From assembly GCA_964637295.1 (NCBI GenBank), contig CAZWWE010000001.1:188312-252311 (forward strand): a DNA stretch of 64,000 nt, in the 5' to 3' direction. Under the pieces are notes generated by a model. It worked only from the letters and a program-made list of their open reading frames with translations, made no database searches and was not told the origin of the DNA. Position numbers and translations under genes: made by a program. This DNA comes from an uncultured Pseudomonadales bacterium (GTDB lineage: Bacteria > Patescibacteriota > Microgenomatia > UBA1400 > PJMF01). Shown piece by piece: positions 19,636 to 61,424 of the stretch; the first letter of the stretch is position 1; every line of letters begins with the position of its first letter.

Positions 19636-19798
19636 AGTCTTAGTTAAGTGTGAAGTTTGTTCTTAATTTTGCATATATTTATGACTTTTTGAAGACAGAG
19701 CTTTGCGATAGTAGTTAATCTACTTGAGCAAAACTCTAACGTACAAAAAGGCTTAAATAGATGTGAAAGAAAGATAAACTTCACACTTAACTAAGACT
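19636..19798. repeat. Intergenic palindromic element: a perfect 23-bp terminal inverted repeat flanking 117 bp. It belongs to the same family as the elements at 48599 and 57277.
   Basis: AGTCTTAGTTAAGTGTGAAGTTT (19636-19658) pairs perfectly with AAACTTCACACTTAACTAAGACT (19776-19798). The arm sequence resembles the arms of the 57277 element (GTCTTA.GTTAA....AAGTTT). Confidence 0.6.
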
Positions 19799-29670: not shown

Positions 29671-29912
29671 AGTAAAAATATTTCCTTTCCTTTTGGATTG
29701 GGAGATTGTATCATAAAGATTAGAGCTTTGCACTTTAATTTTAGTCACGTTCCACTAAAAATTTAGCTATTTTTAGTAAAGACTCTTTTTTTTCACTCAA
29801 TTGAGAAAGCTGTCTCAAAGCTTCATCTTGAATTAAATAATTAAGCAGCTTTCTCAAATGAACTAAAATCAAAGTACAAAGCTGAAAAATTATTAGTTGC
29901 ACTAAAAAAAAT

Positions 29913-35726: not shown

Positions 35727-36455
35727 TTATTTTCTTTTAGCTAAAATTATCACACTGGATCCAATTGGTAAATTAATGTTTTTCTCTATAAGAAACAGGT
35801 CTATCTTAGCGAGAAATAATAATAAAGAATTCAACACTGGATTGATTTTGCCAACAGTTTTTATTTTTTTGGGCTTAAATGTCTTCAAAAACATTCTTTG
35901 TAATACAAAAAGAGGAAAAGTGGCAAAATAAAGATAGGTAGAACGGATAATTTTAAAGTCATGAATTGCTAATAAATTCTCCAGCTCCTTTTTTCTAAAT
36001 CTTTTCTTCGCCATCATTTGCTCATCGTGCACACTCCAAAAAAAAGGTAAGGCACAGTCAGTGATTAAGAGATACCCATTTTTCTTTAATAAACGACTCG
36101 CTTCTCTTAAAACTGCTTTTTCATCAACTTTCTTATGATATAAAACATCAAAAACAGTAATTAAATCAAAATTTTTTTCATTCACTGGAATTTTGTTGAT
36201 TGAAGATTGGATAACTTGCAGTTTTCTTTGTTTGCAAAAATCAACAGCCCTGCTGTTCTGTTCCACTCCAGTTACCTTGCTCCACTGCTCTAAAAATTGA
36301 GTCATGCCTCCAGTGCCACAGCCGAGATCTAAAATCTTATTTTCTTTACTCAACTTAATTTTTTTTAAAAAAATTGCAATAAACAATCTTTTGGCAACAA
36401 ACCACCAATGAGCGGTTTCGGCTTGAAACATAGATTGATATTGAGATTGTTGCAT
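35727..36455 (-). CDS. Class I SAM-dependent methyltransferase
   Basis: ILDLGCGTGG motif I. Confidence 0.8.
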   Translation of the reverse strand: MQQSQYQSMFQAETAHWWFVAKRLFIAIFLKKIKLSKENKILDLGCGTGGMTQFLEQWSKVTGVEQNSRAVDFCKQRKLQVIQSSINKIPVNEKNFDLITVFDVLYHKKVDEKAVLREASRLLKKNGYLLITDCALPFFWSVHDEQMMAKKRFRKKELENLLAIHDFKIIRSTYLYFATFPLFVLQRMFLKTFKPKKIKTVGKINPVLNSLLLFLAKIDLFLIEKNINLPIGSSVIILAKRK

Positions 36456-47859: not shown

Positions 47860-48573
47860 TTAAATGCATAAAAAAAGAAAATTTTTTTGACAATTTTTAA
47901 TTAAGTAATCTTTCCATTGACTAACCACTATGACAGTGGTTTCGTTCTTTAGCGTTTTCTGAATGATTTTTTCTGACTTTTTCCTAAACTCTTCATCCCC
48001 CATATTCATCACCTCATCCAACAATAAAATGTCTGGTTCTGCATGTATCGCCACACTGAATCCCAACCTCAGTTTCATACCACTTGAATAAGTATAAAGT
48101 GGCGCAGTGATAAAATCACCAATACCAGCAAAGTCTACAATTTGGGCGAATTTAGCCTCAATTTCTTCTTTAGACATACCAATTACCAAGCCATTAAGAA
48201 AAATATTTTCCTGACCAGTTAAATCTGGATGAAAACCAGCTTCCAAGTCAATTAATGAAATAATTCTTCCTTTGGTCTTCACTTTTCCTTCAGTTGGAGC
48301 AGAGATACCGGCAATAATTTTTAACAAAGTGGTCTTACCTGCACCATTAGGCCCGTAAAATCCCACTTTTTCACCCCTTCGAATTTGTAAGTTTACATTT
48401 TTTAACGCCCAATATTCTTCTCTCGGTTGGAAACGTAATTTTCTACCAACATCCTCAGCGAAAGTTGGCTTTTCGTGATGAACGATGTATTTTTTACCCA
48501 CTCCTTGCAAATCAATCACCACCTCACCAGGATTTTTGCTTTTGTGTAGAATTTCTTCTTTTAAAATTGTCAT
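47860..48573 (-). CDS. wzt: ABC transporter ATP-binding protein (Wzt/TagH-type polysaccharide exporter)
   Basis: Walker A is GFYGPNGAGKTTLLK. The signature SSGMKLRLGF and the Walker B motif LLLDEV are present. Confidence 0.85.
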   Translation of the reverse strand: MTILKEEILHKSKNPGEVVIDLQGVGKKYIVHHEKPTFAEDVGRKLRFQPREEYWALKNVNLQIRRGEKVGFYGPNGAGKTTLLKIIAGISAPTEGKVKTKGRIISLIDLEAGFHPDLTGQENIFLNGLVIGMSKEEIEAKFAQIVDFAGIGDFITAPLYTYSSGMKLRLGFSVAIHAEPDILLLDEVMNMGDEEFRKKSEKIIQKTLKNETTVIVVSQWKDYLIKNCQKNFLFLCI

Positions 48574-48598
48574 ATTTTCATTTAATTAACTCATCTAA

Positions 48599-48759
48599 AC
48601 CTCGTACTCAAATATGAAATCATTGAAGTCGCTGACTGAGCAATAAAGAATCTTACTTTGTTTTTTAACAGCGACTTCACTGAGCGAGACAAAGGCTGGT
48701 TTGTCATTAAGCAAAAATTTTAGTCGAGCGTGTTTCATATTTGAGTACGAGGTTTATAA
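48599..48759. repeat. Intergenic palindromic element between wzm and wzt: a perfect 24-bp terminal inverted repeat flanking 113 bp
   Basis: TAAACCTCGTACTCAAATATGAAA (48599-48622) pairs perfectly with TTTCATATTTGAGTACGAGGTTTA (48736-48759). A nested 11-bp inverted repeat is TGAAGTCGCTG / CAGCGACTTCA. The interior motifs GCTGACTG, AGCAATAA and ACAGCGACT are shared with the element at 57277. Confidence 0.7.
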
Positions 48760-49560
48760 CCAATCATCAAAATTTTTATTTTCCTTACTAAAAACTCTCC
48801 ACCCCAAATAAAACACAAGCGCCACAATCACCAAGCTCACCGGAGCAAGTTCAAGCAAACTAATCGGCAATCCCATCAAAGCATAATGAAACAGCTCAAC
48901 AATAAAAGTCATCGGGTTTAAATAAAACAAAGGTCGCAACATTTCTGGCAAAAGATTCAAAGCATAAATCACCGGCGTGGCATAAAACCACAACATCACC
49001 GCCAATTGCACCATGAAATTCACATCGCGAAAACGCACGTTGAGCGAAGCGGTTAATAAAGACAAACCAACCGTAAAAACCAGCAATAACAACAAAGCTG
49101 GTAATAGCCATAACATGCGTCCCAAATAGGCCGCCAGCGCCAAAACACCATAGCCTTCCAAAAACAACTTATCTGCCACTAAGGCCGCCACCAACAATAA
49201 TAAAGCCACCAAAAAATGAAACAGGTTGGACAAAATGATTGATAAAATGATCGCCTCGCGAGGAAACTTAGCTTTTTTAATCAAATTGCGTTCGTAAAAA
49301 AAAGCAGGCGTGGTTTTGGTCAAACTTTGCGCAAAAAAATTCCAAGGCAAAAGACCAGCAAACAAAAACAAAAAATAATTATCAACGTGCACCGGCACAA
49401 AAAACTGAAAAACAAAGCCCATCACTAACATTTGTGATAAGGGGTTGATCACGATCCACAGAAAACCCAACACGGCATGTTTATAACGCGCCTTAATTTC
49501 CTTTTGGGTCATCACCCACAAAAAATCGAGCCAATAACGAGCCTGATGAGATACAACCAT
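48754..49560 (-). CDS. wzm: ABC-2 type transporter permease (Wzm/TagG-type)
   Basis: The ORF runs to 49671. The likely start is an internal Met near 49560 (MVVSHQARYW...KEIKARYK). It has six TM helices. Confidence 0.75.
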   Translation of the reverse strand: MVVSHQARYWLDFLWVMTQKEIKARYKHAVLGFLWIVINPLSQMLVMGFVFQFFVPVHVDNYFLFLFAGLLPWNFFAQSLTKTTPAFFYERNLIKKAKFPREAIILSIILSNLFHFLVALLLLVAALVADKLFLEGYGVLALAAYLGRMLWLLPALLLLLVFTVGLSLLTASLNVRFRDVNFMVQLAVMLWFYATPVIYALNLLPEMLRPLFYLNPMTFIVELFHYALMGLPISLLELAPVSLVIVALVFYLGWRVFSKENKNFDDWL

Positions 49561-49639
49561 ATCAGTCTCATACAATAGCACAAGAAGATCCTCTTGCAAA
49601 GCGAAATAAAAATGAGTTATTCTTAATTGACGTCTATAC

Positions 49640-50092
49640 ATGTATAAACCCAAAGATTTTTTGCCAGCCAAATATGGATCTAAAGCTACTACTAAGCCTA
49701 TGGTCTCTTCCCCTTGGAATGATTTAGCTAAAACTCCTAAAATTCCAGATTACGAGAGACCAGCTGAGATGAGTCCTGATCATAAACTCACTGAGCTAAA
49801 GGCCATCGATCAACAAAATCAACAAACAAAAACAACTCCAAGTGCTGAAGCTGTGACTTCCAAAGCTTCATTGGGTAAAAAGCCCACGCTGATAAATCAG
49901 AAACTCGCCGGCTTACTAATGGTTTTCTTTTTAGTCATTGGAGTTTTTGCTAGCTACATGTTGAGCAAACAGAATCAAGATCTGAGACAAAAAGCATATG
50001 TGCCCGACGAACCAAGCGATCCTTATCCTGAAGGAGAAATTTGTACTAACCCAGATGGATGCGTAATTGGGTGGGAAATTGTTGAAAAATAA
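49640..50092 (+). CDS. Short membrane protein consisting essentially of the conserved N-terminal anchor module
   Basis: 150 aa: MYKPKDFLPAKY..., a TM (LMVFFLVIGVFASYML), the motif SKQNQDLRQKAY, then CTNPDGCVIGW. It is homologous to the N-terminus of the C39-like peptidase (14794..15969). Confidence 0.45.
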   Translation: MYKPKDFLPAKYGSKATTKPMVSSPWNDLAKTPKIPDYERPAEMSPDHKLTELKAIDQQNQQTKTTPSAEAVTSKASLGKKPTLINQKLAGLLMVFFLVIGVFASYMLSKQNQDLRQKAYVPDEPSDPYPEGEICTNPDGCVIGWEIVEK

Positions 50093-53403: not shown

Positions 53404-53477
53404 GCGTGTGTAGCTCAATTGGTTAGAGCTCCAAGCTTATACCTTGGCGGTTCTAGGTTCGAGTCCTAGCACACGCA
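53404..53477 (+). tRNA. tRNA-Ile with a genomic UAU anticodon
   Basis: It folds into a cloverleaf with acceptor GCGTGTG / CACACGC, D arm GCTC..GAGC, anticodon stem CCAAG / CTTGG, loop CTTATAC (giving anticodon TAT) and T arm CTAGG-TTCGAGT-CCTAG. Confidence 0.8.
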
Positions 53478-53511
53478 CTTAAATAACCCATTTTTCTGCT
53501 AAAATGGAAGC

Positions 53512-54968: not shown

Positions 54969-55061
54969 TGAGACTCGAACAGCAATTTCAAGACATTTGA
55001 TGACGCGAAAAGATGTATCTAATCGAGTCATCTCTGGCTTGAAATTAGTGTTCGAGTCGTA
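54969..55061. repeat. Imperfect nested palindrome overlapping the 3' end of the GHMP kinase gene; likely a terminator or processing hairpin
   Basis: GACTCGAACAGCAATTTCAAG pairs with CTTGAAATTAGTGTTCGAGTC (2 mismatches). An inner inverted repeat TGATGAC / GTCATC is also present. Confidence 0.45.
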
Positions 55062-56916: not shown

Positions 56917-56969
56917 GAGAGAAAACTTAGTCCTTTAATCTAAGCTGTCTTATGTTAAAGGACTAAGTT
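56917..56969. repeat. Short hairpin made of the same arm sequences as the 57277 element, with the interior collapsed to an 8-nt loop
   Basis: GAGAGAAAACTTAGTCCTTTAATCTAAG pairs with CTGTCTTATGTTAAAGGACTAAGTTCTCTC. The arms are almost identical to the TIRs of the 57277-57447 element. Confidence 0.65.
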
Positions 56970-57280
56970 CTCTCTGCCTTTAGCCCGTAACAAATAATTT
57001 CTTGCGACGCTTCTTTTTTGATTTTTCTCAGCACTATTTCGACTTCATCACCAATTTTGAATTTCTGATGCGCCACTCCCATTAAAGAAATTTTTTCTTT
57101 GCCTAAATCAACTAATAAATAAGCATAAGGCAATAACTCAGTTTGATCAGAAGCAGAAACTTCCATCATTGTGACAGATAAAACTTTGCCTTTTTGACCT
57201 AAATATTTGGACCAGTTTTTATTGGAGCGCCAGTATTCTGTAATTTGCATAAAATTTTTCCATTTAACCAAATAAATCAA
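56963..57280 (-). CDS. DUF35-family OB-fold protein (thiolase/HMG-CoA synthase scaffold-like); the N-terminal zinc ribbon is absent
   Basis: 105-aa ORF with a TTG start at 57280; the first ATG is at 57250. The OB-fold signature LPYAYLLVDLGKEKISLMGV...IGDEVEIVL is present. It lies between the thiolase gene and the kinase genes. Confidence 0.55.
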   Translation of the reverse strand: MIYLVKWKNFMQITEYWRSNKNWSKYLGQKGKVLSVTMMEVSASDQTELLPYAYLLVDLGKEKISLMGVAHQKFKIGDEVEIVLRKIKKEASQEIICYGLKAERT

Positions 57281-57447
57281 AACTTAGTCCTTTAATATAA
57301 GACCATTTGCAGGAGCTGACTGCTAAACATCAATAAGCAATAATGTTTATAGACAGCGACTGCAATGAGTGTAGAAGAAGATTGTTAACTTAAATAAGCT
57401 AATAATTTTCATCTAACGTGTCTTATGTTAAAGGACTAAGTTTTGAT
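57277..57447. repeat. Intergenic palindromic element between the thiolase and DUF35 genes: a 28-bp terminal inverted repeat with 1 mismatch flanking 116 bp
   Basis: ATCAAAACTTAGTCCTTTAATATAAGAC (57277-57304) pairs with GTCTTATGTTAAAGGACTAAGTTTTGAT (57420-57447). The interior shares GCTGACTG, AAGCAATAA and ACAGCGACTGCAATGAG with the 48599 element. Confidence 0.7.
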
Positions 57448-58551
57448 TCCCAAGATATTAACTATTGCCGTCGCGCCACTGCCGCCAACATTATGGGCAA
57501 GCGCCTTGTCAAATTGACCAGCTTCAATTGATGATGCCAAAAAAGCCACCTGTTTTACACCAGTGGCTCCCACTGGATGCCCACAAGCCTTGAGCCCACC
57601 AGAAGGGTTGACTACTACTAAACCATCATAAGTGGCTTGACCTTCAGCAATAGCCTTAGCAGCCTGACCTTTGCTAAAAAAGCCAAGATCTTCAGTGGCT
57701 AGAATTTCAGCAATACTAAAACAATCATGTACTTCAATGGCTTGAATATCTTTTTGACTCAAACCAGCCTGATTAAAGGCTTGCTTAGCTGCTTTTTGTG
57801 TGGCTACTAATTTTCCTAAGTCTTGGCGGTCTTGCAGTGCCAATGTATCTTGGGCATGACCAAAACCTAAAATTTGCGTTTTACGATTGGATTTTTTACT
57901 ACTTAGAATCACCGCTGCTACTCCATCACTAATTGGCGAACAATCTAAAAGTCTAAGCGGCGAAGCAACTATCGCAGAATTAGCAACATCTTCGAGAGTA
58001 AATTTTTTATGAAATTGAGCCTGGGGATTACTAAAAGCATGCAGGTGATTTTTAACCACCACGCTAGATAATTGCTCTCGAGTCGTTCCATAGTGATGCA
58101 TGTGATAATCGGCTAAAACTGCATAAAGCGCTGGAAAAGTCGAACCGTATTCCTTTTCTCTACTAGCCGCTGTCGCCAAAATAGCGCTAGCTTGACTACC
58201 AGAAACATCAGTCATTTTTTCTACTCCCAAAACCAAAACTGTCTTGTATAAACCGCTGAGTAAAGCTTGTTGCGCTGCCACTACTGCCAAGCCACCAGAG
58301 GCACAAGCCCCTTCGACGCGCATCGCCGGCGGAAAATGAGCAAATTGTTCACTGACTAAAGCCCCCAAATGTCTTTGTTCATTAAAACTGCCACTGGCCT
58401 TGTTAGCGACAAAAATTGCTTCAATTTCTGAAGGATTGATTTGTGCATCAGCCAAAACACCGCTCACACCTTCTTTAATCAAATCGGTTAAACTTTTTTC
58501 CCAAAGTTCCCCAAATTTACCGATGTAGTTACCAATTATTTTAATGTTCAT
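57436..58551 (-). CDS. Archaeal-type acetoacetyl-CoA thiolase (thiolase-like / SCP-x family)
   Basis: 371 aa with the catalytic Cys in EGACASGG and the C-terminal motif GHPVGATGV. Confidence 0.75.
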   Translation of the reverse strand: MNIKIIGNYIGKFGELWEKSLTDLIKEGVSGVLADAQINPSEIEAIFVANKASGSFNEQRHLGALVSEQFAHFPPAMRVEGACASGGLAVVAAQQALLSGLYKTVLVLGVEKMTDVSGSQASAILATAASREKEYGSTFPALYAVLADYHMHHYGTTREQLSSVVVKNHLHAFSNPQAQFHKKFTLEDVANSAIVASPLRLLDCSPISDGVAAVILSSKKSNRKTQILGFGHAQDTLALQDRQDLGKLVATQKAAKQAFNQAGLSQKDIQAIEVHDCFSIAEILATEDLGFFSKGQAAKAIAEGQATYDGLVVVNPSGGLKACGHPVGATGVKQVAFLASSIEAGQFDKALAHNVGGSGATAIVNILGIKT

Positions 58552-59630: not shown

Positions 59631-60803
59631 TTATCTTGCTAAACGCTGATGAGCGCTGGCTAAACTATGGTTACTAAGGGCTGCTAAGCCAGAAATTTCG
59701 GCCGCCAATACACCCGCTGCGAGAATTGTGACTAGTTGCGATGCGCTAAGATCTTTTTGATCTTTTGTAATGAGATTTCGTAATTCTTTTTGCGCAGGCA
59801 AGTTTGTTCCTCCACCAACACTACCCAGTGGCAAATCTGGGAGATTGACGGCAACATACAAACCTTTTTCTTCATTTTCTACAATCGTAGTTCCTTGACT
59901 GGCTTCTACGATATGAGCCAAATCTTGGCCAGTGGCCATATAAAAAGCTGCCGCTACATTGGCAAACTGCATATTGGCTGAATTAGAACCCGCTATTTGA
60001 GAACCAAGCACATTCTTGGCTTGATGAGTTCTTAAAAAATCCCTAGCATTTGTTTTTAAAACATTTTGCAAAATCTCTTCATTTAAAAAAATCTCTGCTT
60101 GGGCACTATAGCCTCTACCTAATAATTGATTGATGAATGATACTTTTTTATCTGTGCAAACATTACTAGACAAAGCCAGCATTTCTATGCCCTTATATTG
60201 ACTGAGAAACTCTTCCCAAAGTTTCTGCAGGGCGATGGTCACCATATTCATACCCATCGCTTCATCAGTTAAAAAACTAAAACGTACATAAACATTGCGG
60301 CCTCTGACCAAACTCATTAGTTTAATAAATTTAAGATGCGAGCTGGTTTTTTCGGTAATTTGACGAATTTTGGCACTGGTTTTGACTTCTTCCAAATATT
60401 GGGCAAAGGCAAAAGCTTCATTGCCACTTCTAAAAGCAAAAACTGGAGCTCGAGTTATTCCAAAATTGGTCACTCTGACTTGTGCTCCGCCAGCTTGATT
60501 AATGACTTTCAGACCTCTATTGACGCTGGCCACAAGTGCTCCTTCGCTGGTCGCCAAAGGCACAAAGTATTCGGCTGTTTTTTGTTGCTCAATAATTTTG
60601 ACTGGCCCAGCCAAGCCAACCGGCAACGCCACTGCACCCACCATGTTTTCGCAATTTTTTTGATTAGCTTGGGATAATTCAGGATTAACTGCAAAAAGAT
60701 GAGTAAAAACACCTTTTTTCCATTCTTTTTGCAATTGTTCTTGACGCTTTTTAATCATTTCCAGATCAGAAAGCTCTTTTTGATTTTTGACAAAAAACGA
60801 CAT
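59631..60803 (-). CDS. mvaA: HMG-CoA reductase, soluble catalytic domain only
   Basis: 390 aa carrying ENMVGAVALPVGLAGPVKI and the DAMGMNMV motif. Confidence 0.8.
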   Translation of the reverse strand: MSFFVKNQKELSDLEMIKKRQEQLQKEWKKGVFTHLFAVNPELSQANQKNCENMVGAVALPVGLAGPVKIIEQQKTAEYFVPLATSEGALVASVNRGLKVINQAGGAQVRVTNFGITRAPVFAFRSGNEAFAFAQYLEEVKTSAKIRQITEKTSSHLKFIKLMSLVRGRNVYVRFSFLTDEAMGMNMVTIALQKLWEEFLSQYKGIEMLALSSNVCTDKKVSFINQLLGRGYSAQAEIFLNEEILQNVLKTNARDFLRTHQAKNVLGSQIAGSNSANMQFANVAAAFYMATGQDLAHIVEASQGTTIVENEEKGLYVAVNLPDLPLGSVGGGTNLPAQKELRNLITKDQKDLSASQLVTILAAGVLAAEISGLAALSNHSLASAHQRLAR

Positions 60804-60866
60804 TACTCTTTAATAGTCGCAAAATTACTTAGAAATCATGCAAAAAAGACTAAGAACGAGCGTGAA

Positions 60867-61424
60867 TTAGTTAAAAAAAAGAGCAGTGCTTACTTCATTG
60901 ATTGCTTGTTGAAGAAGGACTTGTTCGTTTTGATTCATTTTCATTAACACGTAATTACTGGGTTCTATATTGCGATTTCCACCTCGACCATCAACGCCCA
61001 AACGCAGGTGCCAAAAATTTTTGTGCCCCAAGTGTTTGTAGATCGAATTTAAACCATTGTGAACTTTGGGGCCTTTAGCTTTTTGTAACTTATATTGTCC
61101 CAAGTCCAAATCAAGGTCATCGTGAGCAACAATTAGATGATTGCCTTCGTCTTCTTCAAGAAAATCACTGTAAAAATAACTGAAAAAATGATGTAAAACC
61201 ATGCCTGAGTTATTCATAAAAGCCAGTGGTTTGATCAGGCAAAGATCTTCGGCTACACCGTTTTGTAGAATTTCTGCTTTCACATAAGCCAATTCAAATT
61301 TTTTCTCAAATTGTAATTTTAAGGAAAGTTTTTGTGCTAAAGCATCAATAAAAATAAAGCCAGCATTGTGCCGCGTATTTTCATATTCTTTGCCTGGATT
61401 TCCCAAACCAACAATGACTTTCAT
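60867..61424 (-). CDS. pth: Peptidyl-tRNA hydrolase
   Basis: The ORF runs to 61475. The likely start is MKVIVGLGNPG at 61424. The GLGNPGKEYENTRHNAGF motif is present. Confidence 0.9.
   Translation of the reverse strand: MKVIVGLGNPGKEYENTRHNAGFIFIDALAQKLSLKLQFEKKFELAYVKAEILQNGVAEDLCLIKPLAFMNNSGMVLHHFFSYFYSDFLEEDEGNHLIVAHDDLDLDLGQYKLQKAKGPKVHNGLNSIYKHLGHKNFWHLRLGVDGRGGNRNIEPSNYVLMKMNQNEQVLLQQAINEVSTALFFN

Follow-up and report, generated by a model that had tools for sequence, protein, structure and literature searches.

A palindromic insertion family with copy-specific arms and a conserved core, probably of MITE type, at gene junctions of Patescibacteria

Among the palindromic repeats described from the spaces between bacterial genes, the closest in architecture to the element considered here is QMITE2 of Coxiella burnetii, a miniature inverted-repeat transposable element (MITE), and the closest in behaviour are the Correia elements of Neisseria and the ERIC elements of enterobacteria. 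The element itself, which we call winD, is a 161-bp palindrome lying between a wzm-like and a wzt-like gene (a polysaccharide/teichoic-acid export pair by Pfam matches and homologue names) in a 64-kb stretch of DNA, hereafter the window (i.e. the whole stretch that was analysed). The host is treated as a Microgenomates-type bacterium of the candidate phyla radiation (CPR); named homologues of the window's thiolase and Wzt-like ATPase come from Patescibacteria, Pacebacteria and Woesebacteria.

In QMITE2, terminal inverted repeats (TIRs) of 23–29 bp enclose a core of 113–145 bp, the transcript forms one very stable stem-loop, and most copies lie just downstream of open reading frames (ORFs), in 3' untranslated regions (PMC10969869). 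The arms of the elements studied here measure 24–30 bp and their core ~113–117 nt. The likeness is one of architecture. The phyla are unrelated, and QMITE2 differs in having 7–9 bp direct repeats and TIRs common to the whole family, whereas here no consistent duplication is found and the arms are specific to each copy. Correia elements have a TA target duplication, and none was found here. Also known as CREE or NEMIS, they are ~100–155 bp long, combine an inverted repeat with a conserved core, and lie near genes with which they are co-transcribed; their hairpin is a substrate of RNase III and can alter the expression of neighbours, and their presence varies between strains (PMC2649163). However, their TIRs are conserved in sequence, they carry IHF sites, and they occur as hundreds of near-identical copies, in contrast to the hypervariable arms and low copy number seen here.

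ERIC (or IRU) elements are imperfect palindromes of ~127 bp in transcribed intergenic regions, with low to moderate copy number; old copies are kept at orthologous sites, other sites are variably occupied, and effects on mRNA decay are known (PMC10969869). A single consensus covers their full length, arms included, whereas only a junction core is common to the copies described below, with the stems rebuilt at each site. The MIRU repeats of mycobacteria reportedly contain small ORFs whose start and stop codons overlap the flanking genes and preserve translational coupling, which resembles an ATGA-bounded ORF across one of our copies, but MIRUs are tandem direct repeats without palindromes. RPE repeats of Rickettsia are likewise small, tolerated in or between translated regions and read in frame (PMC10969869), but these lie inside genes. 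Neither has arms copied from host codons. Finally, template switching between inverted-repeat arms (quasipalindrome correction) homogenises the arms, lengthens them and inverts the spacer (PMC8604942; PMC13100816; PMC7202029), and it would explain arm homogenisation, outward arm growth and spacer inversion here as well. It is, however, a mutational process and not a family, it explains neither spread to new sites nor a conserved core, and most of its documentation concerns short spacers, against ~113 nt here.

Three features distinguish the present family from these systems: its stems are specific to each copy and take in the stop codon of the upstream gene, its core is a conserved three-way junction, and the loss of translational coupling is compensated. 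It is not a known ribozyme, attC site or REP/REPIN, and we place it with the bacterial MITEs and palindromic intergenic repeats. Full-text literature searches turned up no account of such interspersed repeats in CPR bacteria, and a 2024 review of prokaryotic MITEs does not mention any.

The relatives sampled were contigs encoding graded homologues of the window's thiolase and Wzt (~0.5 Mb; individual loci are given L numbers), searched by blastn and with covariance models R1 and R2. Together with the window, these related Patescibacteria contigs hold nine full-length copies at five gene junctions, plus remnants, and the window alone accounts for three full copies and one remnant. The second model iteration (R2) returned no further copies. 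As far as sampled, the family is confined to a Patescibacteria clade (CPR, Pacebacteria-like). Copies are 161–178 bp long with a GC content of 29–36%, and the only ORFs contained in them (at most 83 codons) are not conserved. The initial annotation of this DNA had proposed a family with a conserved interior, and these models bear that out; it had also noted interior blocks common to winD and positions 57277–57447, and these prove to reflect homology, since winD and the copy there, winA, align over their full length in the same orientation with 65% identity (E = 2e-11). Hairpins are common in AT-rich sequence such as this, which is about all that speaks for a chance palindrome or an ordinary intrinsic terminator. 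The probability of either is practically nil: the arm consensus has 6 matches in the window against 0.11 expected, fold z-scores run from -8.6 to -12, covariance-model E-values for the other copies range from 1e-24 to 1e-46, and a promoter and terminator scan at winD found no promoter-like or terminator-like signal and no T-tract. This explanation is ruled out by the excess of arm matches, the full-length homology, the covariance-model matches and the covariation reported below. The organism is present in samples such as SRR36368358 and SRR36368347; Logan contigs hold the whole element and break inside wzm, and so give no evidence of repeat-induced breaks.

Wider searches added little. A two-arm pattern scan of genome and metagenome contig collections recovered one true relative only (L014), the rest being unrelated palindromes, and neither a conserved-core pattern in IMG/VR nor blastn against phages and plasmids gave a match.

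The element is an insertion into originally tight junctions and is variably present, since the same junctions are overlapping or only a few bases long in related genomes (sites in Table 1). The contig of L044 begins just 36 nt before wzt, yet it shows the empty site with its ATGA stop/start overlap. Of the three candidates offered by the initial annotation (a structured RNA, a MITE-like mobile family and a tiny-protein gene), the mobile family thus fits best. In a tree of three mevalonate-pathway proteins, L026 and L039 are nearest to the window, and the occupancy of sites A and D is incongruent with that tree. Occupancy of site D roughly tracks Wzt similarity, which suggests that the wzm-element-wzt cassette may move by recombination; surface-polysaccharide loci often do. 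In L039, a close relative without the element, the thiolase/DUF35 spacer is 61 nt long (2727–2787) and matches junction block J12 weakly in antisense (E = 0.15); this spacer may be a deletion remnant.

Alignment and RNAalifold give a Y-shaped consensus in which a closing stem of 24–30 bp (P1) leads to two inner hairpins (P2 and P3) by way of three junction blocks, which read on the gene strand ...GAC-ACGCTCGACTAAAA, CAATCTTYTTYT-CGCTCAnTG and CAATGG-TC.... P3 comprises ~10 bp, commonly GAAGTCGCTG/CAGCGACTTC, and its loop carries an extension. With the sense of winD defined as the gene (minus) strand, the gene-strand RNA folds of winD and winA both take this form, a long closing stem with two inner hairpins (z = -8.6 and -12.1). 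The arms of winD are 24 nt long and 100% complementary across a spacer of 113 nt. In this respect the annotated 24-bp perfect TIR stands, although its placement at 48599–48759 does not, the element lying 3 nt further left. The nested inverted repeat had likewise been seen correctly but is longer than the 11 bp assigned to it (48620–48634 and 48669–48683, 15 nt, 93% complementary). The insertion does not fall precisely between wzm and wzt, as had been thought: the wzm stop codon sits within an arm, so that the element overlaps the gene end. Indeed, every copy within an operon has the stop codon of the preceding gene in its 5' arm, as with the thiolase stop TAG (57436–57438) in the arm of winA.

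Between the 3' arm and the next start codon lies a tail of 17–32 nt (63 nt in one case) that is absent from empty sites, and several tails share a GGTTAAAT...AAAGGAAATT-like sequence. The core has the sense of the downstream gene at four of the five sites; in the full-length copy of L030, the core is inverted and thus antisense to its operon, but the tail is on the downstream side as in all the others. The arms-only remnant E3 lies 310 bp from winA. Its outer bases and downstream tail agree with the full-length L030 copy at the same junction, whereas its arms resemble those of winA, which suggests an internal deletion together with arm conversion from the neighbouring winA.

Conservation within the family is the reverse of that in a normal MITE, with the core kept and the ends free. 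Mean pairwise identity is 0.70–0.80 in the junction blocks as opposed to 0.38–0.49 in the arms, which is near saturation, and 0.30–0.49 in arms and loops together; the same pattern holds among the four wzm/wzt copies, whose junction blocks are 70–80% identical while their arms and loops are saturated. Pairing is nevertheless kept. Counted over the nine aligned full-length sequences, 36 of 44 pairs in all helices show double-sided changes, and 90.8% of cells are paired as compared with 36–44% when the partners are slid by one to three columns. For P1 alone, double changes occur in 24 of 26 pairs and 93.9% of cells are paired (~40% in the slid controls). None of 500 shuffles reached the observed pairing and covariation values. 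P3 shows both-sided changes in 8 of 10 family pairs, with 93% of cells paired, and P2 is weakly supported as a family helix (68% of cells paired, few double changes).

The initial annotation had read compensatory change in the arms as a sign of selection on the stem. The covariation is real, but the step from it to selection on an RNA does not follow. Over all helices, the gene strand has 19 G·U pairs and the opposite strand has 18, and P1 contains 212 Watson–Crick cells against 3 G·U cells (gene strand) or 9 (opposite strand). One-sided changes of the G·U type are rare in P1 and double changes of the transversion type are common. Unconstrained minimum-free-energy folds favour the antisense strand in seven of the nine copies, while energies of the consensus structure are balanced; an assignment of strand from folding energy and G·U counts, when attempted, indicated no consistent strand.

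Moreover, the stem contains host sequence. At the wzm/wzt junction, the partner changes with the stop codon from one species to another: TAA...TTA in the window, TGA...TCA in L031 and L033. At the DUF35/mevalonate kinase (MK) junction of L030, the arm starts in native codons of DUF35 (E-K-I, by comparison with L029), which the far arm repeats in inverted form. A palindrome at the junction of the phosphomevalonate kinase (PMK) and diphosphomevalonate decarboxylase (MDD) genes (window 54972–55058, with 24-nt arms and a 39-nt loop; also L029 13234–13331) displays this construction most clearly: the final four to five native codons of PMK, with the stop, make up the arm on the gene side, the far arm is an inverted copy, and 14–18 nt of coding sequence are mirrored in two species, each with its own synonymous codons (Leu CTC versus TTG). 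In seven other relatives examined, this junction measures 3–18 nt. By eye, the PMK/MDD loop resembles the junction blocks, but a hidden Markov model of the blocks gives no match there at E <=10, and membership of the family is unproven.

Inverted copies of 10–18 nt of pre-existing coding sequence require templated copying of DNA and not point mutation. Selection on the stem at the RNA level is therefore disfavoured, as there is no strand bias in G·U pairs, P1 is almost purely Watson–Crick, host stop and other codons are mirrored, and the L030 core is inverted. The 'compensatory' changes can then be attributed mainly to homogenisation of the arms at the DNA level. On balance, we lean towards a picture in which this is a low-copy, non-autonomous MITE-type family of palindromic insertions whose arm pairing is kept mainly by such homogenisation.

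The same observations bear on a cis-acting structured RNA module in the operon mRNAs, which may or may not have arrived by transposition and in which P1 and the three-way junction would exert their effect at the transcript level. It might be a processing site for RNase III or another cistron-separating activity, a stabilising hairpin, or an apposition of stop and start codons that preserves coupling. Junction nucleotides that stay constant beside covarying helices are what one classically expects of a structured RNA, the wzm/wzt orthologues keep the core in place, the core mostly has the sense of the downstream gene, and every copy ends at the tail distance given above from a start codon with the operon stop in its 5' arm; moreover, there are precedents in Correia and ERIC elements for effects of RNase III and RNase E (PMC2649163; PMC10969869). 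Yet the overall G·U count is unbiased and that of P1 leans the wrong way, the full-length L030 copy is antisense to its operon, the downstream genes (wzt, DUF35, MK, pgk, pth) are unrelated, winD lacks promoter-like and terminator-like signals, and a perfect Watson–Crick stem of 24–30 bp with inverted host codons needs DNA templating in any case. There is also no Rfam relative: a scan of the window at gathering thresholds found only rRNA and tRNA, and permissive scans added nothing but matches far below threshold to hairpin-like miRNA precursors, ctRNA and Hovlinc. Nothing resembles 6S RNA, which had been put forward as a candidate, and hammerhead core motifs (CUGANGA/GAAA), sought by eye at the junctions on both strands, were not seen. 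We regard an RNA module as possible but rather unlikely.

Still more doubtful, although attractive, is a structure-defined mobile module in which only the ~110-nt three-way-junction core would be heritable, with the stem rebuilt at each site from host sequence, always enclosing the upstream stop, and selection would keep the core because a dedicated protein binds the folded transcript (or the single-stranded DNA). If that were true, the element would be a portable device re-wiring translational coupling or mRNA processing in minimal CPR genomes.

The freedom of arm sequence under strict pairing, the equal folding of both strands and the internal position of the conserved parts would also be expected of a folded single-stranded DNA substrate of recombination or transposition, recognised by structure as in attC sites or IS200/IS605-like elements, with the junction and P3 binding protein. 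Copies abut stop codons, as attC sites do, and many arms start ...AAAC and end GTTT..., a faint likeness to attC core sites. The attC core consensus R''/R' is RYYYAAC...GTTRRRY, however, and is not matched, for purines precede AAC. No cassette array is present, the genes alongside belong to core operons and are not cassettes, no integrase or HUH transposase is present among the 50 window ORFs scanned, and IS200/IS605 ends have no long terminal inverted repeats. Such a substrate is very unlikely. An attC site as such was considered and rejected: most copies have ends of the form RAAAAC...GTTTTY and others do not, the fold is a Y with a conserved interior, where an attC site forms a single bulged hairpin, the neighbours belong to core operons, and no integrase was found among the window ORFs scanned. 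REPs and REPINs are palindromes of only 20–40 nt, or doublets of them, that are highly repeated with a common sequence and go with a RAYT transposase. REP/REPIN was rejected as well, given the length of 161–178 bp, the ~113-nt core, the copy-specific arms and the low copy number; no Y1 transposase was found among the window ORFs scanned.

A further set of observations concerns translation. One stop-free frame on the gene strand spans the whole element in all four wzm/wzt copies, as happens in 6–9% of arm-mirrored shuffles for each, and no such frame exists on either strand in the five copies at other sites. The counterpart ORFs in L031, L033 and L035 all start, in the same frame, from the ATG within the ancestral ATGA overlap shared with wzm, and that of L035 also terminates in an ATGA overlap with wzt. 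The 47-codon ORF noted earlier in winD exists and has the translation given for it, but it runs from 48738 to 48595 and not from 48743 to 48600; its frame is in phase with wzm and differs from that of the relatives with respect to the conserved core. These ORFs would be the evidence for a small-protein gene of 47–83 codons within the hairpin. Their peptides, however, share only the residues imposed by the conserved nucleotide blocks, the frame shifts against the core, copies elsewhere have no ORF, and the start and stop codons are accounted for as what is left of the original ATGA overlap between wzm and wzt. As a conserved protein, then, the tiny gene fails, and we consider it highly improbable; the pattern matches selection for ribosome transit instead. 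With the core conserved and the frame open in all four wzm/wzt copies, the element may have a host-level role, most plausibly on the mRNA. The wzm/wzt copy is necessarily co-transcribed.

The course of events on the MITE-type reading may be outlined as follows. A copy consists of a ~113-nt core (two inner hairpins and three junction blocks), arms of 24–30 bp and a short tail, rich in A/T, with the ribosome-binding region for the gene that follows. Some enzyme acting in trans would spread the element to new sites. Once there, complementarity of the arms would be kept at the DNA level and extended outward into flanking host sequence, the likely mechanism being intramolecular template switching or gene conversion between the arms. 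Purifying selection on the coding arm would choose which arm serves as template, so that the coding arm is always the template, and copying of this kind would mimic compensatory evolution without selection at the RNA level. The same process, or recombination between the arms, could flip the core and leave a copy inverted relative to its operon, as in L030. At wzm/wzt, insertion would have broken the ancestral ATGA stop/start overlap; expression of wzt would now depend on the new tail and, in the relatives, also on the open frame that lets ribosomes cross the hairpin from the old start codon. The conserved core suggests that it is still bound by something, either a mobilising enzyme or a host factor.

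In size (MITEs being below ~500 bp), AT-rich composition and the absence of a transposase gene of their own, the copies are what would be expected of MITEs, and so are their number in 64 kb and the empty orthologous junctions. Several points weigh against this reading. Divergence of the arms to near saturation is hard to reconcile with a transposase that reads TIR sequence, and no consistent target-site duplication was found across the copies compared. The TA dinucleotides that had been taken as a hint of one at winD are part of the palindrome at each end, with an extra TA on one side only; both TA at winD and AT at winA are palindromes in their own right and cannot be told apart from the arms, and the ATGA found on both sides of the wzm/wzt insert is also the native start of wzt. 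Age is expected to erode such duplications (PMC10969869). Transposase or recombinase domains are absent from the 50 window ORFs compared with Pfam-A, and the precomputed gene annotation of the fetched relative loci lists no transposase; no autonomous partner was seen in any of these loci. Copy number is low, the copies are old, and there has been no burst of near-identical copies.

Conservation of the junction blocks in place among wzm/wzt orthologues also points to purifying selection beyond what selfish DNA would predict, and the open frame is probably kept by selection so that ribosomes can pass, relaying translational coupling, and not for the sake of a peptide, which is not expected of plain selfish DNA either. 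Template switching across a 113-nt spacer is less documented than across short ones (PMC8604942, discussion). Between winA and its counterpart in L037, three of three one-sided stem changes yield G·U on the gene strand, a small hint of RNA. These two copies are 91% identical, including loops and tail, while both flanks are 75–76% identical and nearer relatives have no element; their identity is explained neither by simple vertical descent nor by recombination through the flanks. Finally, the relatives examined cover only the ~0.5 Mb described.

Table 1. Features of the wzm/wzt element, other copies in the window and occupancy of the five sites (window coordinates)
Feature	Position	Strand	Details
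Element copy winD	48596..48756	-	Inverted repeat; covariance-model match 142.7 bits, E ~1e-38; RNA fold z = -8.6
P1 5' arm (gene strand)	48733..48756	-	First three bases (48756-48754) are the wzm stop TAA
P1 3' arm (gene strand)	48596..48619	-	24 nt, 100% complementary to 48733-48756
Junction block J12, conserved	48718..48732	-	Gene strand CACGCTCGACTAAAA; mean pairwise identity 0.71-0.74 across copies
P2 inner hairpin	48688..48705	-	GACAAACCAGCCTTTGTC; from RNA fold; length and sequence differ from copy to copy
Junction block J23, 3' part	48678..48689	-	Gene strand TCTCGCTCAGTG; block identity 0.70-0.73
P3 inner hairpin	48620..48683	-	Stem GAAGTCGCTG / CAGCGACTTC, loop ~34 nt
Tail, 3' arm to wzt ATG (48573-48571)	48574..48595	-	22 nt; missing from empty sites
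ORF through winD	48595..48738	-	47 codons; in frame with wzm beyond its TAA
Upstream gene, ABC-2 type membrane protein (wzm-like)	48754..49671	-	Pfam PF01061; the mechanical ORF start probably lies too far upstream
Downstream gene, ABC transporter ATPase (wzt/tagH-like)	47860..48573	-	Pfam PF00005; homologue source names
Element copy winA, thiolase/DUF35 junction	57275..57448	-	29-nt arms 57275-57303 and 57420-57448; 158 bits
Arms-only remnant E3, DUF35/mevalonate-kinase junction	56918..56975	-	27-nt arms, 4-nt loop; arms 96% like winA
Diverged full-length copy winE, divergent spacer between ribosomal protein S1 gene and pgk	29718..29888	+	92 and 120 bits; 27 nt upstream of pgk ATG
Site A, thiolase/DUF35			Occupied: window, L014/L037. 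Empty: L026-28, L029, L030, L031, L033, L035 (ATGA overlap or 2-30 nt)
Site B, DUF35/mevalonate kinase	56918..56975		Full-length: L030. Arms-only remnant: window. Empty: L014, L026, L029 (overlapping or tight)
Site C, GT28<>pth			Occupied: L029 only. Empty: L026, L030, L037
Site D, wzm/wzt			Occupied: window, L031, L033, L035. Empty: L039 (TTATAAGAATG), L041, L044 (CTATGA, ATGA overlap)
Site E, S1<>pgk	29718..29888		Occupied: window, the only genome sampled at this site

Other palindromes were also observed. In the window, positions 19636–19798 form a near-perfect palindrome of 163 bp (23-nt perfect arms; 78% self-complementary from end to end; fold z = -11.8), which immediately precedes tRNA-Ala(TGC), 23S and 5S genes on the minus strand; considered as a family member, it was rejected for want of a blastn or covariance-model match. 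Chloroflexia/Chloroflexota metagenome-assembled genomes (MAGs; L010–L012 and L015–L017) carry another palindromic repeat family of ~160 bp with tandem GAAACGT arm motifs, matched by chance in the pattern scan, with four of the loci in one MAG. A 'Candidatus Acidoferrum' MAG (L013) and a JGI metagenome contig (L022) share a nearly identical GC-rich palindrome of ~150 bp (AAACGTGGTTCTGTAAATTGC...).

The window carries a complete mevalonate operon, and its 23S–5S pair is preceded by tRNA-Ala, with no 16S gene within the window, so that the rRNA genes there appear unlinked. It also has a tRNA-Ile with anticodon TAT, a dedicated AUA reader (53404–53478). Between positions 36000 and 44000, inside a cluster of glycosyltransferase and O-antigen-ligase genes, G+C falls to 26–31% as compared with 35–44% elsewhere, and this stretch may be a horizontally exchanged surface-polysaccharide island. 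In L026, L029, L030 and L037, the HMG-CoA reductase gene and pth are separated by a polyprenyl synthase gene and an MFS transporter gene, which are missing at this place in the window (60803–60867), where pth directly follows the reductase gene. The contig of L014/L037 (CAZIBP010000001.1) shares synteny with the window (~75% nucleotide identity), and where homologues of its thiolase have a named source, this is Patescibacteria. The title of its MAG, 'uncultured Pseudomonadales bacterium', is probably a wrong label.

What we describe is apparently a hitherto undescribed interspersed repeat family in CPR bacteria, whose genomes are tiny and densely packed. It illustrates that homogenisation of inverted repeats at the DNA level can mimic textbook covariation, with most pairs covarying in the absence of a strand signal and with host stop and coding bases in the stem. 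As arm homogenisation yields covariation, R-scape-type tests alone would over-call such elements as RNAs. The wzm/wzt junction is also a natural experiment, in which ATGA-coupled operons tolerate a 160-bp hairpin through new ribosome-binding tails and a ribosome-relaying open frame. The conserved core could mark a DNA- or RNA-binding activity not yet described, and the finding would be of greater interest still if that core proved to be a functional RNA or a protein-binding module.

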